A stretch of 52,616 nucleotides of DNA from a virus (IMGVR_UViG_3300048433_000716:1-52616); one strand, 5' to 3'; positions 39,333 to 47,513 are shown, numbered from the stretch's first letter. Numbers and translations are program-made. Notes: generated from the sequence alone by a model not told the origin.

Positions 39333-39460
39333 AGGGTTTTGTAATTACAATTTTACTTCTGTTGTCATTAAGTTCTTGCACCTACAAATACCAAGTTTCC
39401 AAATGGGATAACAGTGTCTTATTAGGAACGATTATAGGTACTTTAGTTAGTTTGAACTAG
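39329..39460 (+). CDS. Small lipoprotein (43 aa, not in ORF track)
   Basis: MKGFVITILLLLSLSS-CTYKYQ: signal peptide II with lipobox LSSC; ATGA coupling. Confidence 0.65.
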   Translation: MKGFVITILLLLSLSSCTYKYQVSKWDNSVLLGTIIGTLVSLN

Positions 39461-42111
39461 GTAGCATTAGCTTGGGTACTAGGCATATCGCTTAGTGCCC
39501 CTAACTGCTCCTCTAATCCTATCGCTGTTCCTGCACCCATAGTAAATAAAGATAATCCCTTCAGAACTTTTTCTTTCAATTCAGGCGTAATTTTTATTGT
39601 CCATGATGATTGCTTTTGGGTAGCATTTCTAAAATCAGCATTATTTTGTGCTTGTTCTAAGGTTCTAAATGATGCGACTGGCAGATCAGTGCCAACCTCT
39701 TTAACTTGATACACTCTATCTAATGGTGAACTACCTCTTAACATTACAACTGTATGTAAATTTTTTGGTCTTATTTCTACAATTTGTTTGCTGACATTTT
39801 CTTTTCCTGCAACCTTCTTCGCCATAGATGGTATCTTATCTTCATAGTGATCAAGTAATCCTTCATTGCCCCATCTATCAACTTGGACTTGTCCAGGTGA
39901 AAATGAAATACTGTCATGACCTTCTAGAACTGCTCTTTGCAATAATCTTTTGATACCAAATTTAGTCCACCCCTCAGTGGTTTCAACTACATCTCCACCA
40001 GGGATATTGCCAGATAATTTAGTGTCAAGACCATATCTTCTTGCTATCAAATCGTCTGCATAGTCTTCGAATGTCTTTGCATCTGGAAATTGATTGTTGC
40101 CTCTTAAATCATATTTAGTAGGTGGTGTATATCTCACGAATGTGCCAACTATATCCCTTTGAAGTTCTTTTGGCATTTTTTCAAAAGGCTCAACTACAAA
40201 TCCAGCTTTTCTCAAAGCCTTAAGTGGCTCTAAAGAAGTTGTTATAGAATCTTCCAAATTATTACTATTCACAAAATCTATGTAGTCAGCCATAGTCATA
40301 GTCTTATATTCATCAGGCATTCTGCTATTTTCGTAATCAAATACGTTTTCTGGCATTTTTGCACCTTGATTGTATTTTTCAGCCATTAATCCAGAAACAT
40401 CCTCTCGTAATGGCACTCTAATTGGTGGTCTGCCTGGGTTCTTCAGTGAATACAAAAGCTCTTGTTCTGGTGCAGTTAATTTGATTTTTAAATTTCTTAA
40501 TCCAAATAACTCGTCATCTACTTCATCAAACTTTTGTTTATTTTTCTCATATGACTTAGTGCCTGGTGCAAAGCCTCTTTGTCTTCCTGCCTGACCTCTA
40601 TCTGATTGCAGTTCTTCTACATATAATGTTTTGCTTCCATCTTCTAAAGTTCTGTCCTTTGTTCGAAGGTGAACAATTGGATTATAGTTAGGAAAGTGAA
40701 TTGGATTTTGATAATCATCGATATCGCTATACTCACCTAATCTTGCTGAGCTTGGATTATTAGATTGTTTGCCTATTACGAACTCTCTATAATTTGAGCC
40801 ACCTTGTTGAGTATTTTCACTAAACCTAGCGTCTTTCGCTACATAATCGCCATTTTGTATAGCATAACTTTCTGTCTGTACTATGGCTTCGTTAATGTTT
40901 CCTCTATTTGCAATTTCGTCAAATCTAAATGAATCCATATCCTCTCTATTATAATCCAGAATTTTATATTGTTCTGATTGAGTGATATCAAATATGTCTG
41001 CATTTTTATCAAATGTGAGAAAGTTTCCACTTTTATCGTCATAAACTATTCTGTACCCAGTTTTGTTATCCTCCAAAACTCTTGTAGGATTTGTTAACTC
41101 TGTTGCTGACCTTGTTTCATCTGATACATTTAGACCTTTGTTGAGTTCATCGATCTCATAATTACTAAATTTATTATACTGAGGCGTTTCTGATATCTTT
41201 TTTGTCATATCCTCAAATATTAATGTTGAGCCTTCAGTGATAGGATTATCTTGATACACATCTTCGTATAATTCTAGTTTATTAACATTTATTTTTGTTA
41301 ATATGTCTTTTTTTGTAATAGGTCTGTTGGTAACTTTAAATAAATCATCAAGACCAGTATCAACTAACTCTGCTTCAGTTACGCCTTGATTCTGAAAATA
41401 TTTTTTAAAGTCTGCTCCACTACCTTTGTTTTGTTTCATTTTATTAGCAACTTCTTCTGATTTATAGAAAAATCCTAATTCATCTAACTTTCTTGGATTT
41501 GTCATGACCATATTAGGTGGCATTCTTCTAGTGCTTGCTAACATTACTGGCTCTTTTGGCAAAGCCCCTACATTTGTAGGTACATTATCGCCTTTGAGCT
41601 TTTTTGATAGTGATTGAGAAAAGCCCTTGAGACCTTTTGCTATGGGTTTTGTTATAAGTGCACCCTCTAACACAGCAGCAGCTCCCTCAATAGCTGGGGC
41701 TATATAATCAGTTCCCTTTTGTGCTCTCTTAAATCCTCTTCCAGCTTCTTGAAGATAAAAAGGTATACCAAAAGGTGTAATATCTAATAAGCCAATTGAC
41801 TTACTAAACGTCTCAGCATTAGGGTCTCCCACAAAACCTCTAGCCACATTACTTATTGCTCCCTTTGGCGTGCCTAAATATGTTAGAAGGTCTCTTATGC
41901 CATAGTTTAGCTTTTCTCTCATGGTAGGCTTGTATGGCTCTAATGTAGCCCCTTGAGATTGTTGTATATTCTTTTCTAGTTGGTTAAGTGGCACATTAGA
42001 ATTGTATATCATAGAAGCATACTGAGGATTTTCAAAAACGCTAGGCTCTACGCTTTGAGCTTCCTTAATTCTGTTCTCTCTAAAAAACCTATCTAGCTCA
42101 TTCTCAGCCAT
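39457..42111 (-). CDS. Large polyvalent-protein-like virion protein
   Basis: GGSNYREF, HLRTKDR...YVEELQSD, KRLLQRAVLEGHD motifs. Confidence 0.7.
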   Translation of the reverse strand: MAENELDRFFRENRIKEAQSVEPSVFENPQYASMIYNSNVPLNQLEKNIQQSQGATLEPYKPTMREKLNYGIRDLLTYLGTPKGAISNVARGFVGDPNAETFSKSIGLLDITPFGIPFYLQEAGRGFKRAQKGTDYIAPAIEGAAAVLEGALITKPIAKGLKGFSQSLSKKLKGDNVPTNVGALPKEPVMLASTRRMPPNMVMTNPRKLDELGFFYKSEEVANKMKQNKGSGADFKKYFQNQGVTEAELVDTGLDDLFKVTNRPITKKDILTKINVNKLELYEDVYQDNPITEGSTLIFEDMTKKISETPQYNKFSNYEIDELNKGLNVSDETRSATELTNPTRVLEDNKTGYRIVYDDKSGNFLTFDKNADIFDITQSEQYKILDYNREDMDSFRFDEIANRGNINEAIVQTESYAIQNGDYVAKDARFSENTQQGGSNYREFVIGKQSNNPSSARLGEYSDIDDYQNPIHFPNYNPIVHLRTKDRTLEDGSKTLYVEELQSDRGQAGRQRGFAPGTKSYEKNKQKFDEVDDELFGLRNLKIKLTAPEQELLYSLKNPGRPPIRVPLREDVSGLMAEKYNQGAKMPENVFDYENSRMPDEYKTMTMADYIDFVNSNNLEDSITTSLEPLKALRKAGFVVEPFEKMPKELQRDIVGTFVRYTPPTKYDLRGNNQFPDAKTFEDYADDLIARRYGLDTKLSGNIPGGDVVETTEGWTKFGIKRLLQRAVLEGHDSISFSPGQVQVDRWGNEGLLDHYEDKIPSMAKKVAGKENVSKQIVEIRPKNLHTVVMLRGSSPLDRVYQVKEVGTDLPVASFRTLEQAQNNADFRNATQKQSSWTIKITPELKEKVLKGLSLFTMGAGTAIGLEEQLGALSDMPSTQANAT

Positions 42112-45907: not shown

Positions 45908-47024
45908 ATTTTTCTCCTATAAGTTGCTTGATATTAGATACAAAACCCAAAGCGTAACAAATCCCTTCGCCCACTTTACTTATTACCTTAACTACCTTGC
46001 TCTTCTTGCCATATCTTCCCTTGGACAAGTCATAAGCCATTTGTTTAGCCCAAGCTAAAGCTAAAGGCTTGGTAATTTTGTAGACTATTCCTTTGTCTCT
46101 CATTTTTGTAGCTACATATTCTCCCCATACACAATAACCTTTATACACCAATGGGTCTACACGTTTTCCATATATCTGATCATATTTGTAGATATATTTT
46201 TTCATATCACCCATTTCATAAAGAGCAGTGCATATGTATGTAGATGAATCAGAAGAAGAAGCTGCGTCATCGCTGAATGTGTTTGATAAATCTTTGCCAC
46301 TAGTTGTGTCTGTTACAGAAGTCTCTGCCCCAGTCTGAGAACTTTGGCTAGGGTCTACCCCTTCTGACCTACCAAATCCTAAACCTATGCCCTTACTGCC
46401 AGTGTACCCAGATCCAGTTGCACCACCTAAGTCTCCAGTAGCACCAACACCACTTCCTATCCCACTTGAAATATTATCTACTTGTTGCTGAGTATATATG
46501 CTAGGTGTCGTTGTTCTAGCCTCATATCCTCCAAGCACACCACCACTTGGGTCAATCTTTCCTAGATTGGTAACACCAACTGTTCCCTTTGTATAGCCAC
46601 TCATTGGGTTTAACCCCACATTATATGATGTTAGCTTGCCTTGATTCATGCCAAAGTTTTGTGCCTCTCTTTTCGACACCACGCCATCTTTATTAACATC
46701 TGCCATACTTCTTGCAGTATCTAATGATGGGTCTGTAACCATGCCAGTTACTGTATCTACAAAACCTCTGTTCTGACCAAGTGCAGACTGAGCTGCTTTT
46801 TCTGCATTATAGCTTGTAATACCCTGAGCTACAGTTCCTAATGCACTTATTGCAGGATTGCCAGTTAATCCCAAGCCATATCCTAATGCTGAACCTTTGC
46901 TTACGCCAATCCCTCCCAAGTTCAATCCACTAGGATTAGTCATCTCAAAGCCTCGTGACAAGTCTCCATATTGACCTTGAGTTAATGAACCTAGTGCACC
47001 TAAGTTTTGATTGGCTCTTGCCAT
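45900..47024 (-). CDS. Gly/Ser-rich putative virion protein with C-terminal IC[N/T] domain
   Basis: Low-complexity body, Ser linker, then YICTALY domain. Confidence 0.75.
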   Translation of the reverse strand: MARANQNLGALGSLTQGQYGDLSRGFEMTNPSGLNLGGIGVSKGSALGYGLGLTGNPAISALGTVAQGITSYNAEKAAQSALGQNRGFVDTVTGMVTDPSLDTARSMADVNKDGVVSKREAQNFGMNQGKLTSYNVGLNPMSGYTKGTVGVTNLGKIDPSGGVLGGYEARTTTPSIYTQQQVDNISSGIGSGVGATGDLGGATGSGYTGSKGIGLGFGRSEGVDPSQSSQTGAETSVTDTTSGKDLSNTFSDDAASSSDSSTYICTALYEMGDMKKYIYKYDQIYGKRVDPLVYKGYCVWGEYVATKMRDKGIVYKITKPLALAWAKQMAYDLSKGRYGKKSKVVKVISKVGEGICYALGFVSNIKQLIGEKYG

Positions 47025-47513
47025 TTATCTGACCATGCCCTCAGCGAAAGGATCGATACCTCTTCTTAGCATATCCATCTGCTCTCTTGACATGCCACTT
47101 GCATCAAAAGGTCTTTGTGGTGGTGCTTGAGGTGGCATCTGAGGTAAAGCCCCTAACTGTTGTGGCATTTGTTGACCACCCATTGTCTGAGGTCTTGGCA
47201 TAGGAGCTTGCATTTGTTGCCCACCAAACTCTTCTGGTCTTACTGTGCCCATTGATCGTTCTCTAACAACTGCTTCAATAGCATCTTGCTCATTTAATCC
47301 CATGTCCATAAGTAAACGTACTTTGTCTATGTCTGTCATATCTCGTTGTGGCATCATGCTATCCATACCCATATCCATATTTGATGGTATGTTTTCTCTA
47401 GCCATTTGACTCATCTCGCTTTCACGAACAACGCTTCTTGGGTCTAACATTTGATTTATTTCGCCTTCTCTCATAACAGCTCTAGGGTCTGTCATTCTGT
47501 TGTCTTGCGGCAT
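47025..47513 (-). CDS. Met/Gln/Pro-rich disordered protein
   Basis: 162 aa, DPR.V.RE.E repeat, directly after portal. Confidence 0.7.
   Translation of the reverse strand: MPQDNRMTDPRAVMREGEINQMLDPRSVVRESEMSQMARENIPSNMDMGMDSMMPQRDMTDIDKVRLLMDMGLNEQDAIEAVVRERSMGTVRPEEFGGQQMQAPMPRPQTMGGQQMPQQLGALPQMPPQAPPQRPFDASGMSREQMDMLRRGIDPFAEGMVR

Follow-up and report, generated by a model that had tools for sequence, protein, structure and literature searches.

The window, that is, the whole 52,616-nucleotide stretch of DNA that we analysed, is a complete 52.6-kb genome of a marine phage related to the Roseobacter phages CRP-901 and CRP-902, whose group is described as globally abundant at sea (PMC10149686). 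We recomputed the coordinates of a short recurrent peptide from its 86 greedy open reading frames (ORFs), and a PHROGs scan covered 40 of its proteins. The strict form of the peptide is [VILMF]-G-A-L-[PGS], a hydrophobic residue followed by Gly, Ala, Leu and one of Gly, Pro or Ser. The gene groups on which the analysis bears are an ejection module, the head module and a cluster that follows the portal gene.

14160-15785, minus strand: 541-aa protein, matching phrog_13634 over residues 333-477
15788-17266, minus strand: 492-aa ejection-protein-like protein (phrog_4287 DNA ejection protein, E 9e-8)
17266-17706, minus strand: GNAT acetyltransferase (phrog_1249, E 8.6e-16) inside the ejection module, no motif
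17706-18077, minus strand: small acidic protein (SAP), 123 aa from the ATG at 18077, with a helical core, an acidic linker and the C-terminal MGALGNM
18080-19462, minus strand: 460-aa protein with a glycine-zipper segment, upstream neighbour of SAP
33155-36479, minus strand: head module, no member with the motif
33155-34057, minus strand: major capsid protein, head module, no motif
within 33155-36479, minus strand: 160-aa and 184-aa proteins, head module, no motif
35133-36059, minus strand: 308-aa Glu/Lys-rich coiled-coil protein, likely the scaffold to judge from its composition
36072-36479, minus strand: phage-encoded GroES homologue, head module
39457-42111, minus strand: 884-aa cluster protein; VGALP at 41557-41571, LGALS at 39490-39504, 10 residues from the C-terminus
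42112-45907, minus strand: cluster members without the motif, namely an acidic 94-aa protein (45623-45907), a 153-aa protein and basic small proteins
42767-43339, minus strand: 190-aa ADP-ribosyltransferase-like (ART-like) protein; IGALP at residues 20-24, 43268-43282
44229-45485, minus strand: 418-aa protein with four motif copies (strict and variant) in its first 100 residues
45900-47024, minus strand: 374-aa Gly-rich cluster protein; LGALG at residues 8-12, 46989-47003
47025-47513, minus strand: 162-aa Met/Pro/Gln-rich protein overlapping the portal stop; LGALP at 47142-47156
47482-49947, minus strand: portal protein, 821 aa (phrog_1216 portal, E 1.9e-33), start of the post-portal cluster

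The portal shares 72% identity with that of CRP-901/902 and has a long coiled-coil-like C-terminal tail, which its sequence suggests to be barrel-like. The interval from the portal gene to the capsid gene holds the cluster, a hydrolase, the GroES homologue, the coiled-coil protein and the 160-aa and 184-aa proteins; HTVC023P and Caulobacter phage RW share the conserved head module. Pfam and PHROG searches found no recognisable families among the cluster proteins, the 162-aa and 884-aa proteins included. The very basic members without the motif are 44, 63, 59, 85 and 64 aa long, and the 94-, 85- and 64-aa families are conserved in relatives with 0 motifs. We regard the cluster proteins as putative injected effectors, a label that draws on one ART-like protein and on the GenBank labels of relatives (nuclease, LysM). 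An initial sequence-only reading had called the 190-aa protein an ADP-ribosyltransferase. R114, S126-x-T128 and E177-x-E179 are conserved in this order in 10 to 11 of 11 homologues, and a Foldseek search of its AF2 model against the PDB gave 0 matches at E<=0.001, the weak top ones being mostly ART toxins (TM 0.25-0.36). The assignment is plausible, but it stays below family thresholds, with no match in Pfam or PHROGs.

The same reading had listed ten strict motif matches in eight proteins, and all ten were recovered at their places. Every one lies in the post-portal cluster or the ejection module, and the other 78 of the 86 ORFs contain none, in agreement with its by-eye finding of none in the replication, capsid, tail and lysis proteins. 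This specificity far exceeds chance. The residue composition of each protein predicts 0.33 strict matches in the window, and in the shuffling test that had been proposed the mean within proteins was 0.34 and the maximum 4, with 0 of 5000 shuffles reaching 10 matches or 8 proteins. When the five residue classes are permuted, the motif order ranks top of the 120 possible orderings with 10 matches (median 0), and the second-best ordering, with 6, overlaps the same sites. Codons vary from site to site, which places the signal at the protein level, as had been suggested. The tripeptide GAL alone occurs 20 times versus 7.1 expected (rank 2 of 5581 tripeptides, p=5e-5), an enrichment that would not by itself survive multiple-testing correction; the statistical weight is in the five-residue pattern and its replication in other genomes. 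Orthologue alignments show that 2 of the 10 window sites are not kept as motif, and both are probably incidental matches: MGALP of the 541-aa protein (14508-14522) lies within a conserved domain without being conserved itself, and LGALG of the 492-aa protein (15827-15841), which also has a GGALP, lies in a conserved Gly-rich hydrophobic C-terminus where most orthologues have GSL or GTL.

The information in the motif is confined to about 8 residues, with the consensus Φ-G-A-L-[GPS]-N-[LIV], and its position is biased towards protein ends. In proteins of at least 200 aa, 15 of 34 distinct sites fall no more than 30 residues from an end of the protein, versus 6.1 expected. Of 74 distinct sites, the 30 residues next to the N-terminus hold 19 and the 30 next to the C-terminus 27, which leaves 28 internal; the motif lies only 3-10 residues from many N-termini. 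The setting is disordered: Gln, Met and Pro are over-represented around the motif and Leu, Phe, Tyr and Trp under-represented, the linkers that carry the motif vary in length and sequence, and in both folded examples (SAP and the ART-like protein; AF2) it falls in low-confidence, unstructured segments. When embedding in a glycine zipper or membrane segment was tested, the flanks did not fit, except at the 492-aa C-terminal site.

Conservation is strongest in SAP, where MGALG occupies 17715-17729. All 18 of 18 orthologues end in MGAL.., with the motif 2-3 residues from the C-terminus, and G118, A119 and L120 are invariant in 48 of 48 diverse homologues; model confidence (pLDDT) is 80-88 in the core and 47-57 in the tail. 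The ART-like protein keeps K19-I-G-A-L-P24 in 11 of 11 homologues, two of its relatives have gained an extra C-terminal copy, and its model (pLDDT 63 overall) falls below 50 for residues 1-44, which hold the motif. GAL is retained in 52 of 54 sequences of a post-portal family of small proteins, and 6 of 11 members of the 374-aa family have an N-terminal GAL at the aligned position. Copies in the 418-aa protein (strict LGALG at 45402-45416 and FGALP at 45354-45368; variant LGAFG at 45312-45326 and VGALQ at 45189-45203) turn over or move between orthologues. The orthologues found for the 884-aa protein do not span its C-terminal LGALS site. In the window, the 460-aa protein carries no more than EGALD and GGALG; relatives have IGALG or IGALS near the N-terminus. 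These observations bear out the earlier description of a motif common to unrelated proteins, mostly in termini and linkers; it is confined to the two clusters and kept amid varying flanks.

We fixed the pattern beforehand and then applied it to 80 portal loci. Their 365 post-portal ORFs hold 83 matches versus 1.91 expected, and the 542 other ORFs hold 2 versus 1.46. Because related loci share ancestry, such member-level counts overstate the number of independent events, and family-level counts are the fair ones: 18 of 75 post-portal BLAST families carry the strict motif. The 64 of these families without a homologue in the window contain 47 matches versus 0.88 expected, with 14 of the 64 carrying the motif, and 10 versus 0.30 when one representative is taken from each. 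The motif is independent of homology, and dozens of unrelated dark-matter proteins across the phage group carry it. In the ejection module of 58 other loci, there are 21 matches versus 2.38 expected downstream of the 634-aa gene and 2 versus 3.22 elsewhere. SAP and motif enrichment co-occur across loci. The SAP profile matches in the window, CRP-901, CRP-902 and the loci L159, G001, L154 and L155; it has no match in HTVC023P or in 17 far-clade loci, which hold 0 motif matches versus 0.81 expected.

A search for an equivalent motif in other clades, also proposed in the sequence-only reading, found one in the same places: the sister SAP clade ends in S-R-G-L-M-G in place of GAL. Among the best 150 SAP-family representatives, 54 end in GA[LF].. 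and 29 in S-[RKQ]-G-L-[MVI]... The pattern S[RKQE]GL[MVTILS] occurs 5 times in L155 versus 0.17 expected and 4 times in L149 versus 0.20, two loci that are homologous and count as one clade; it lies there in SAP and both its neighbours. L149 and L155 have zero GAL matches, and the GAL-type locus L159 has zero SRGL matches. L154, one of three SRGL-clade loci, carries the variant in SAP only. One of the L155 matches is at residue 44 of a giant protein, whose counterpart in G001 matches the DarB-like family (phrog_10089, E 9e-299).

With slightly better than even confidence, we read the motif as a clade-specific, position-independent address tag for head-internal proteins, both ejected and cargo, comparable to the capsid-targeting sequence (CTS) of T4. 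Φ-G-A-L-[G/P/S](-N-[L/I/V]) would be a short linear address, placed on flexible termini or linkers and often in several copies, that marks proteins carried in the phage head, namely the ejection-module proteins and a fast-changing cargo set encoded right after the portal gene. One common partner would read the tag at procapsid assembly (loading), at exit through the tail, or at both, and the address would differ by clade, GAL here and S-R-G-L-M-G in the sister clade. Virion residence of the tagged proteins, a docking role for the tag and the nature of its reader are all inferred; the head-module proteins are candidate readers. The first proposal has partial support: its shared short linear motif holds, with two clusters and clade variants, and the docking onto portal or scaffold that it included stays hypothetical. 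Uneven conservation (6 of 11 in the 374-aa family, moving copies in the 418-aa protein, the unconserved 541-aa site) counts against an address tag, as do its presence in only 18 of 75 families, with conserved small basic and acidic proteins never tagged, and the restriction of the variant to SAP in L154.

The motif could instead act after ejection, in assembly of a trans-envelope conduit or as a handle for a host factor (a chaperone, membrane or periplasmic protein) that receives the unfolded proteins. In favour are its occurrence in ejection-module proteins, the GroES that the phage itself encodes, and the joint travel of SAP and its upstream neighbour between phages that have no portal match or other BLAST-shared protein, which a reader outside the capsid would explain. 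We nevertheless consider this rather unlikely, since nothing connects the motif with a host factor, a single post-ejection partner would have to serve both envelope-acting proteins and cargo that acts in the cytoplasm (ART-like, DarB-like), and the clade-specific switch better fits a co-evolving phage-encoded reader than a conserved host reader. Cleavage at the motif had been offered as the alternative to docking; propeptides or linkers would then be cut during head maturation, in the manner of T4 or phiKZ-like heads, by a protease of the phage or of its host. Sites at termini and between modules would suit it, and head-internal proteins of other phages are reported to be commonly processed (PMC7411985). 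However, the PHROGs scan of 40 window proteins hit no prohead protease family, its only "protease" match being the capsid half of a fused capsid-protease family, and none of the proteins between the portal and capsid genes matches a protease family. The tag also lies so near the termini, in SAP and at the many N-terminal sites, that cutting would free only tiny peptides; processing is thus disfavoured and, in our judgement, quite improbable.

That the motif has no common function, and reflects Gly/Ala/Leu-rich low complexity or glycine zippers together with hidden common ancestry, would fit the Gly-rich hydrophobic segment around the 492-aa site, the glycine-zipper match of the 460-aa protein and the non-significance of GAL alone after multiple testing. 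This explanation is largely refuted by the shuffles, which never reach the observed count, by the top rank among 120 orderings, and by enrichment that persists in families without detectable homology. The flanks are moreover polar and disordered-like rather than membrane-like, and the motif columns are invariant amid variable flanks, so that we hold it to be highly improbable.

T4 Alt is an injected ADP-ribosyltransferase, and the T4 CTS is removed by the prohead protease. The address tag resembles this CTS, found on IPI, IPII, IPIII and Alt, in that a short peptide is described as the sole common feature of diverse, fast-evolving proteins that are packaged in the head and injected (PMC3012670). 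The T-even internal proteins are a diverse defence set, including anti-restriction factors (PMC3012670). Here the peptide is likewise common to unrelated proteins (18 of 75 families, 14 of 64 without a window homologue), their head-internal location being putative. The T4 CTS is N-terminal and targets the scaffolding core, whereas the tag here is N-terminal, C-terminal or internal (19 of 74 sites within 30 residues of the N-terminus) and often multi-copy; the 40 proteins scanned include no prohead protease family, ejection-module proteins are tagged too, and the two peptides bear no sequence resemblance. Encapsulin cargo-loading peptides, of a Gly-plus-small-plus-Leu type, sit on flexible terminal linkers and bring unrelated cargo into an HK97-fold shell, whose inner face they bind; encapsulins are not viruses. 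The SAP tail and the ART-like N-terminus are similarly terminal, low-pLDDT and unstructured. Unlike encapsulin peptides, the motif is also internal, and tagged proteins would have to leave the shell again.

In P1, a myovirus with a different head module, 30 N-terminal residues of DarB suffice for capsid loading, the signal being terminal, longer than 9 and at most 30 residues, on a giant anti-restriction protein (PMC9024508), and DarA-Hdf pairs are located on the inner capsid surface (PMC12810830). The tagged giant protein of L155, with its DarB-like counterpart, parallels this system. The P1 report describes no consensus among Dar N-termini in a search for a common signal (PMC9024508), whereas here one consensus is found on many proteins. 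P22 gp7, gp16 and gp20 and the T7 internal core proteins are head-internal and ejected before or with the DNA; as here, the genes of such podovirus-type ejection proteins form a block that follows the tail genes (PMC8402733, PMC4992974). The abstracts on the P22 and T7 ejection proteins describe no shared linear tag, a difference from this phage.

SAP and its 460-aa neighbour are the only protein pair common to the window and the unrelated phage G001 by BLAST. More tentatively, the tag may be a dialect within a widespread peptide code that switches between clades and travels together with its reader. That reader would be the SAP helical core or the glycine-zipper neighbour, the only two proteins that otherwise unrelated phages have in common. 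In that case SAP would act as a hub, daisy-chaining into the head both the ejection proteins and an exchangeable anti-defence cargo (ART-like, DarB-like). We give this a low probability. If true, one could tell from sequence which proteins many uncultured podovirus-like phages carry inside, and could load foreign proteins by attaching eight residues to them.

To our knowledge, how tailed phages beyond T4 and P1 select head cargo for packing and injection is largely unknown. This phage group shows a robust, conserved consensus tag on dozens of unrelated proteins, and its sister clade a different one. If the tag is a loading signal, the hypervariable post-portal cluster could be read as a list of what the phage injects, likely effectors of host takeover or anti-defence, a cultured phage-host pair would offer a direct experimental handle, and genome-specific address peptides might be a general feature of phage head cargo.

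The GNAT acetyltransferase gene inside the ejection module is conserved in 24 related loci. A second motif, D-P-x-x-V-x-R-E-G/S-E, is present in a post-portal and an ejection-module protein: the 162-aa protein has two copies (47460-47489 and 47415-47444), and the 541-aa protein has L-I-D-P-G-S-V-A-R-E-G-E at 14595-14624.

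The pentapeptide [VILMF]-G-A-L-[PGS], here called the GAL tag, occurs ten times in eight proteins of the window. All ten strict matches lie where the sequence-only reading had placed them, and the other 78 of the 86 ORFs carry none. That reading had also called for an enrichment test and taken the motif as a signal at the level of protein; the motif proves enriched and the second point holds. Composition predicts 0.33 matches, and shuffling within proteins gave a mean of 0.34 and a maximum of 4, with 0 of 5000 shuffles reaching ten. Codons differ from site to site, which rules out a DNA-level repeat as the source of the motif. 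The five residue classes can be ordered in 120 ways; the order of the motif has the most matches in the window (10; next 6; median 0) as well as in relatives (83; next 39), and the runner-up orders are overlapping read-outs of the very same sites. The bare tripeptide GAL appears 20 times in the window against 7.1 expected, ranking 2 of 5581 tripeptides, an excess that fails multiple-testing correction. Taken by itself, the signal from the window is strong but post hoc. From orthologue alignments, we regard two of the sites as probably incidental: MGALP of the 541-aa protein, which is not conserved and sits in a folded conserved region, and LGALG of the 492-aa protein, in whose conserved C-terminus, rich in Gly and hydrophobic, most relatives have GSL or GTL instead.

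The window is a complete virus record of 52,616 bases with a G+C content of about 36%, and megablast found no nucleotide match to it among deposited phages. In the portal protein, it shares 72% identity with Roseobacter phages CRP-901 and CRP-902 and about 40% with pelagiphages HTVC023P and HTVC027P. The features needed here are as follows.

49940-51445, minus strand: large terminase
47482-49947, minus strand: portal, 821 aa
47513 down to 39457, minus strand: the gene cluster under study, after the portal
42573-42767, 43340-43769, 44029-44220, 45486-45620 and 45623-45907: untagged Lys/Arg-rich mini-proteins (64, 85, 59, 63 and 44 aa) and an acidic 94-aa protein
between the cluster and GroES: a few small plus-strand genes and a cell-wall hydrolase
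36072-36479, minus strand: GroES homologue, immediately upstream of the scaffold-like and capsid genes
after the 308-aa coiled-coil protein and before the capsid gene, minus strand: 160-aa and 184-aa proteins
33155-34057, minus strand: major capsid protein, Mu gpT-like
between the capsid gene and the block of large proteins: tail, lysis and auxiliary genes
19462 down to 12151, minus strand: block of large proteins, with a glycine-zipper protein, the small acidic protein (SAP), a GNAT acetyltransferase and a match to a "DNA ejection protein" family

The 308-aa protein is a Glu/Lys-rich coiled coil and, judged by composition, is likely the scaffold; PDB sequence searches with this protein, the capsid protein and the portal gave no match. 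HTVC023P and Caulobacter phage RW keep the unit of portal, GroES, coiled-coil protein, two small proteins and capsid, but only 3 to 4 small genes separate their portal from GroES, so the 8-kb post-portal cluster represents an expansion within the CRP-901-type clade. Two adjacent 2OG-Fe(II) oxygenase genes (23445-24671) lie amid the tail and lysis genes and have similar genes in HTVC023P.

With the motif pattern fixed beforehand, we scanned relatives of the window. A portal search of viral contigs returned 597 related stretches, and the best 80 loci were used, in which the post-portal set comprised 365 same-strand ORFs downstream of the portal, as far as GroES where present. These ORFs hold 83 matches against 1.91 expected, spread over 76 ORFs, whereas the remaining 542 ORFs hold 2 against 1.46 expected. 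Single-linkage BLAST grouping placed the post-portal ORFs in 75 families, 18 of which contain the motif. The 64 families without a BLAST homologue in the window account for 47 matches against 0.88 expected (14 of 64 families), and still for 10 against 0.30 when each is represented by its longest member. Searching with the virion protein of 634 aa that adjoins the ejection block gave a second set, of 58 loci, in which ORFs downstream of the 634-aa gene hold 21 matches against 2.38 expected and the rest 2 against 3.22. Split by clade, the counts are 10 against 0.46 in the 12 loci of at least 70% identity, 11 against 1.11 in the 32 loci of 50-70% identity, and 0 against 0.81 in the 17 far-clade loci below 50%.

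In CRP-901 and CRP-902, relatives in culture whose host is Roseobacter sp. FZCC0083, the motif is distributed as in the window. Their SAP ends in MGALS or MGALG, their homologue of the 492-aa protein carries LGALS, other ejection-block proteins carry IGALS and MGALT close to their N-termini, and a small post-portal protein carries MGALS; an annotated nuclease has YGALQ 12 residues before its end. Neither HTVC023P nor the examined 21.6 kb of phage RW showed the motif, and these sequences have no BLAST homologues of the cluster and ejection proteins.

Only about 8 positions carry information in 151 non-redundant GAL contexts taken from post-portal ORFs: F/L/M/I/V at -1, then G, A and L, G/P/S at +3, N at +4 (4.5-fold), L/I/V at +5 (4-fold) and P/T at +6. 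Gln and Met are overrepresented in the flanks, where Trp, Cys, His and Tyr hardly occur. Among proteins of 200 aa or more, 15 of 34 distinct sites fall no further than 30 residues from a terminus (6.1 expected), many of them at residues 4-12 or inside the final 15 residues. A relaxed pattern, [VILMFYWA]-G-A-L, is present in 49 of 78 cluster ORFs of at least 300 aa, compared with 1 of 178 ORFs of this length elsewhere. The cluster of relatives has a loose backbone: first comes a small tagged protein whose gene overlaps the portal stop, then large variable tagged proteins with small conserved untagged ones in between. The untagged proteins of the window cluster are strikingly basic (85, 64, 63, 59 and 44 aa) or acidic (94 aa). 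Several exceed the portal in conservation (the 85-aa family has a median identity of 87%), and a role as DNA-associated head proteins or adaptors is possible.

Conservation of the tag is strong at terminal sites and weaker at others. In the SAP (17706-18077, minus strand), a variable acidic linker joins the helical core to the tag at the extreme C-terminal end. Its mechanical ORF begins at TTG 18113; the start at ATG 18077 chosen in the sequence-only reading is the most likely one, as orthologues begin there. Because this ATG overlaps the stop codon of the upstream 460-aa gene (ATGA), the arrangement suggests coupled translation of the two genes. All 18 of 18 SAP orthologues end in MGAL plus 3-4 residues. 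When 48 sequences are aligned, column identity averages 28%, and no columns are invariant other than L68, L84-P85-E86 and G118-A119-L120. The AlphaFold model is confident in the helical core (pLDDT 80-88) and leaves the tail unstructured (47-57); Foldseek found no match to it among viral structures at E<=0.001. The GNAT acetyltransferase gene (17266-17706) lies within the ejection module between the SAP and the 492-aa protein; 24 related loci retain it, as does L159, a locus of the GAL type, and it is absent from the SRGL-clade loci described below.

The 190-aa cluster protein has 16 database relatives, and K-I-G-A-L-P is invariant across 11 aligned sequences of its family, even in a 40%-identical member in which big insertions flank it; two relatives have acquired a further copy at the C-terminus. 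Residues 1-44 of its model are of low confidence. In a small post-portal family (L008-L080, for example L012:4682-4906), 52 of 54 distinct sequences retain GAL; its members have a conserved N-terminal P-I-N-P-x-A-F-G-G and a helix ahead of a Pro/Gln-rich tail. Of 11 members of the 374-aa family, 6 have the N-terminal copy, and the copies toward the N-terminus of the 418-aa family arise, disappear and shift. Such turnover is typical of short linear motifs.

The sequence-only reading had suggested looking for equivalent genome-specific motifs in relatives, and one clade does replace GAL, with S-[RKQE]-G-L-[MVTILS] (SRGL). A SAP profile run against 1.84 billion representatives gave 204 matches at E<=0.001. 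Among the best 150 of these, 54 finish in G-A-[LF] plus 1-6 residues, 29 in [SA]-[RKQEA]-G-L-[MVTIL] plus 0-4 residues, usually with N-P-L a few residues upstream, and 15 in other Arg/Asn/Lys-Leu/Phe-type tails; the remainder are fragments or have other ends. A locus search of the SRGL clade with a narrowed alignment yielded 1 viral and 7 metagenome loci. The SRGL pattern, derived solely from SAP tails, was tested in three loci. It is enriched in L155 (5 against 0.17 expected: twice in the upstream neighbor, once each in the SAP and the downstream neighbor, and once in a giant protein, at residue 44) and in L149 (4 against 0.20); in L154 it is confined to the SAP. The GAL pattern has no match in these three loci, nor the SRGL pattern in L159. 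L149 and L155 are homologous and count as one further clade, not two. L149 lies in G001, a complete 60-kb phage whose portal has no match to that of the window; by BLAST, the two genomes have only the SAP and its upstream neighbor in common. G001 has terminal repeats and a 4908-aa ORF (28347-43073; loci L150-L152) that combines a DarB-like methyltransferase/helicase region, matching the DarB-like antirestriction family at E 9e-299, with segments like minor head protein and lysin families. The SAP profile matches in every genome or locus showing tag enrichment; it has no match in the 17 far-clade loci or HTVC023P, where enrichment is absent.

The tag has the look of an address or docking signal because one peptide sits on the flexible ends of many unrelated proteins, all encoded alongside the head and ejection genes, and because it is conserved amid changing surroundings and swapped as a set in another clade. 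We lean toward a tag for loading, ejection or both of head-internal proteins. Action solely after ejection is a rather unlikely alternative. We consider a cleavage site improbable, as scanning 40 window proteins revealed no prohead protease, and it would be surprising indeed if the motif had no common function at all. A GroEL-binding role, on the model of the GroES mobile loop, was considered and set aside. T4 capsid targeting is the closest precedent of the loading or ejection tag that we favor. A study of phage P1 reports that the first 30 residues of DarB are enough to load a reporter and that a consensus was sought among the Dar proteins and none found (PMC9024508); another places DarA-Hdf pairs on the inner capsid wall (PMC12810830). 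The present tag differs from the T4 and P1 precedents in being unrelated in sequence, in occupying N-terminal, C-terminal or internal positions, frequently in multiple copies, in being common also to ejection-module proteins, and in the lack of a protease among the proteins scanned. Abstracts and selected passages of the literature hold no account of the motif or of a shared tag for this phage group, and the searched passages of the CRP-901/902 paper hold no virion proteomics. On capacity grounds, the scaffold or capsid wall would be a more plausible reader of the tag than the 12-fold portal. The reader might also lie within the pair of SAP and upstream neighbor, since that pair alone is shared with the unrelated phage G001. 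A co-fold of the capsid, 308-aa and 160-aa proteins with the last 41 SAP residues, made without control runs, scored 0.02 against a mark of 0.32, which weighs neither for nor against contact.

The cluster proteins of the window match no Pfam or PHROG family, and ten representatives of tagged families from relatives gave only DUF7178 and weak DUF4112/BSD matches. Atlas look-ups of the 160-aa and 884-aa proteins returned nothing informative. The earlier assignment of the 190-aa protein as an ADP-ribosyltransferase (ART) is plausible: the R, S-x-T and E-x-E residues are conserved, but fold matches, though mostly to ADP-ribosyltransferases, are weak and none is significant. An effector reading of the cluster has three bases: this ART-like protein, the depositors' labels "nuclease" and "LysM" in CRP-901/902, and the hypervariability of the cluster against a conserved backbone. 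Some genes of the cluster are not cargo. Minus-strand ORFs 43769-44029 (86 aa) and 44029-44220 (63 aa) match gp52 and gp51 of HTVC023P, which adjoin that phage's M15 peptidase. The 120-aa plus-strand ORF at 43710-44072 is probably an antisense shadow.

A second motif, [ML]-[LI]-D-P-x-S-V-x-R-E-[GS]-E, occurs twice in the 162-aa protein (47415-47489) and once in the 541-aa protein (14595-14624), about 25 residues upstream of MGALP. In the 80 portal loci it has no match outside the post-portal and ejection clusters, and it recurs in small post-portal proteins and 541-aa orthologues of relatives (loci L006, L057, L071, L088, L105, L112, L117, L121 and L127).
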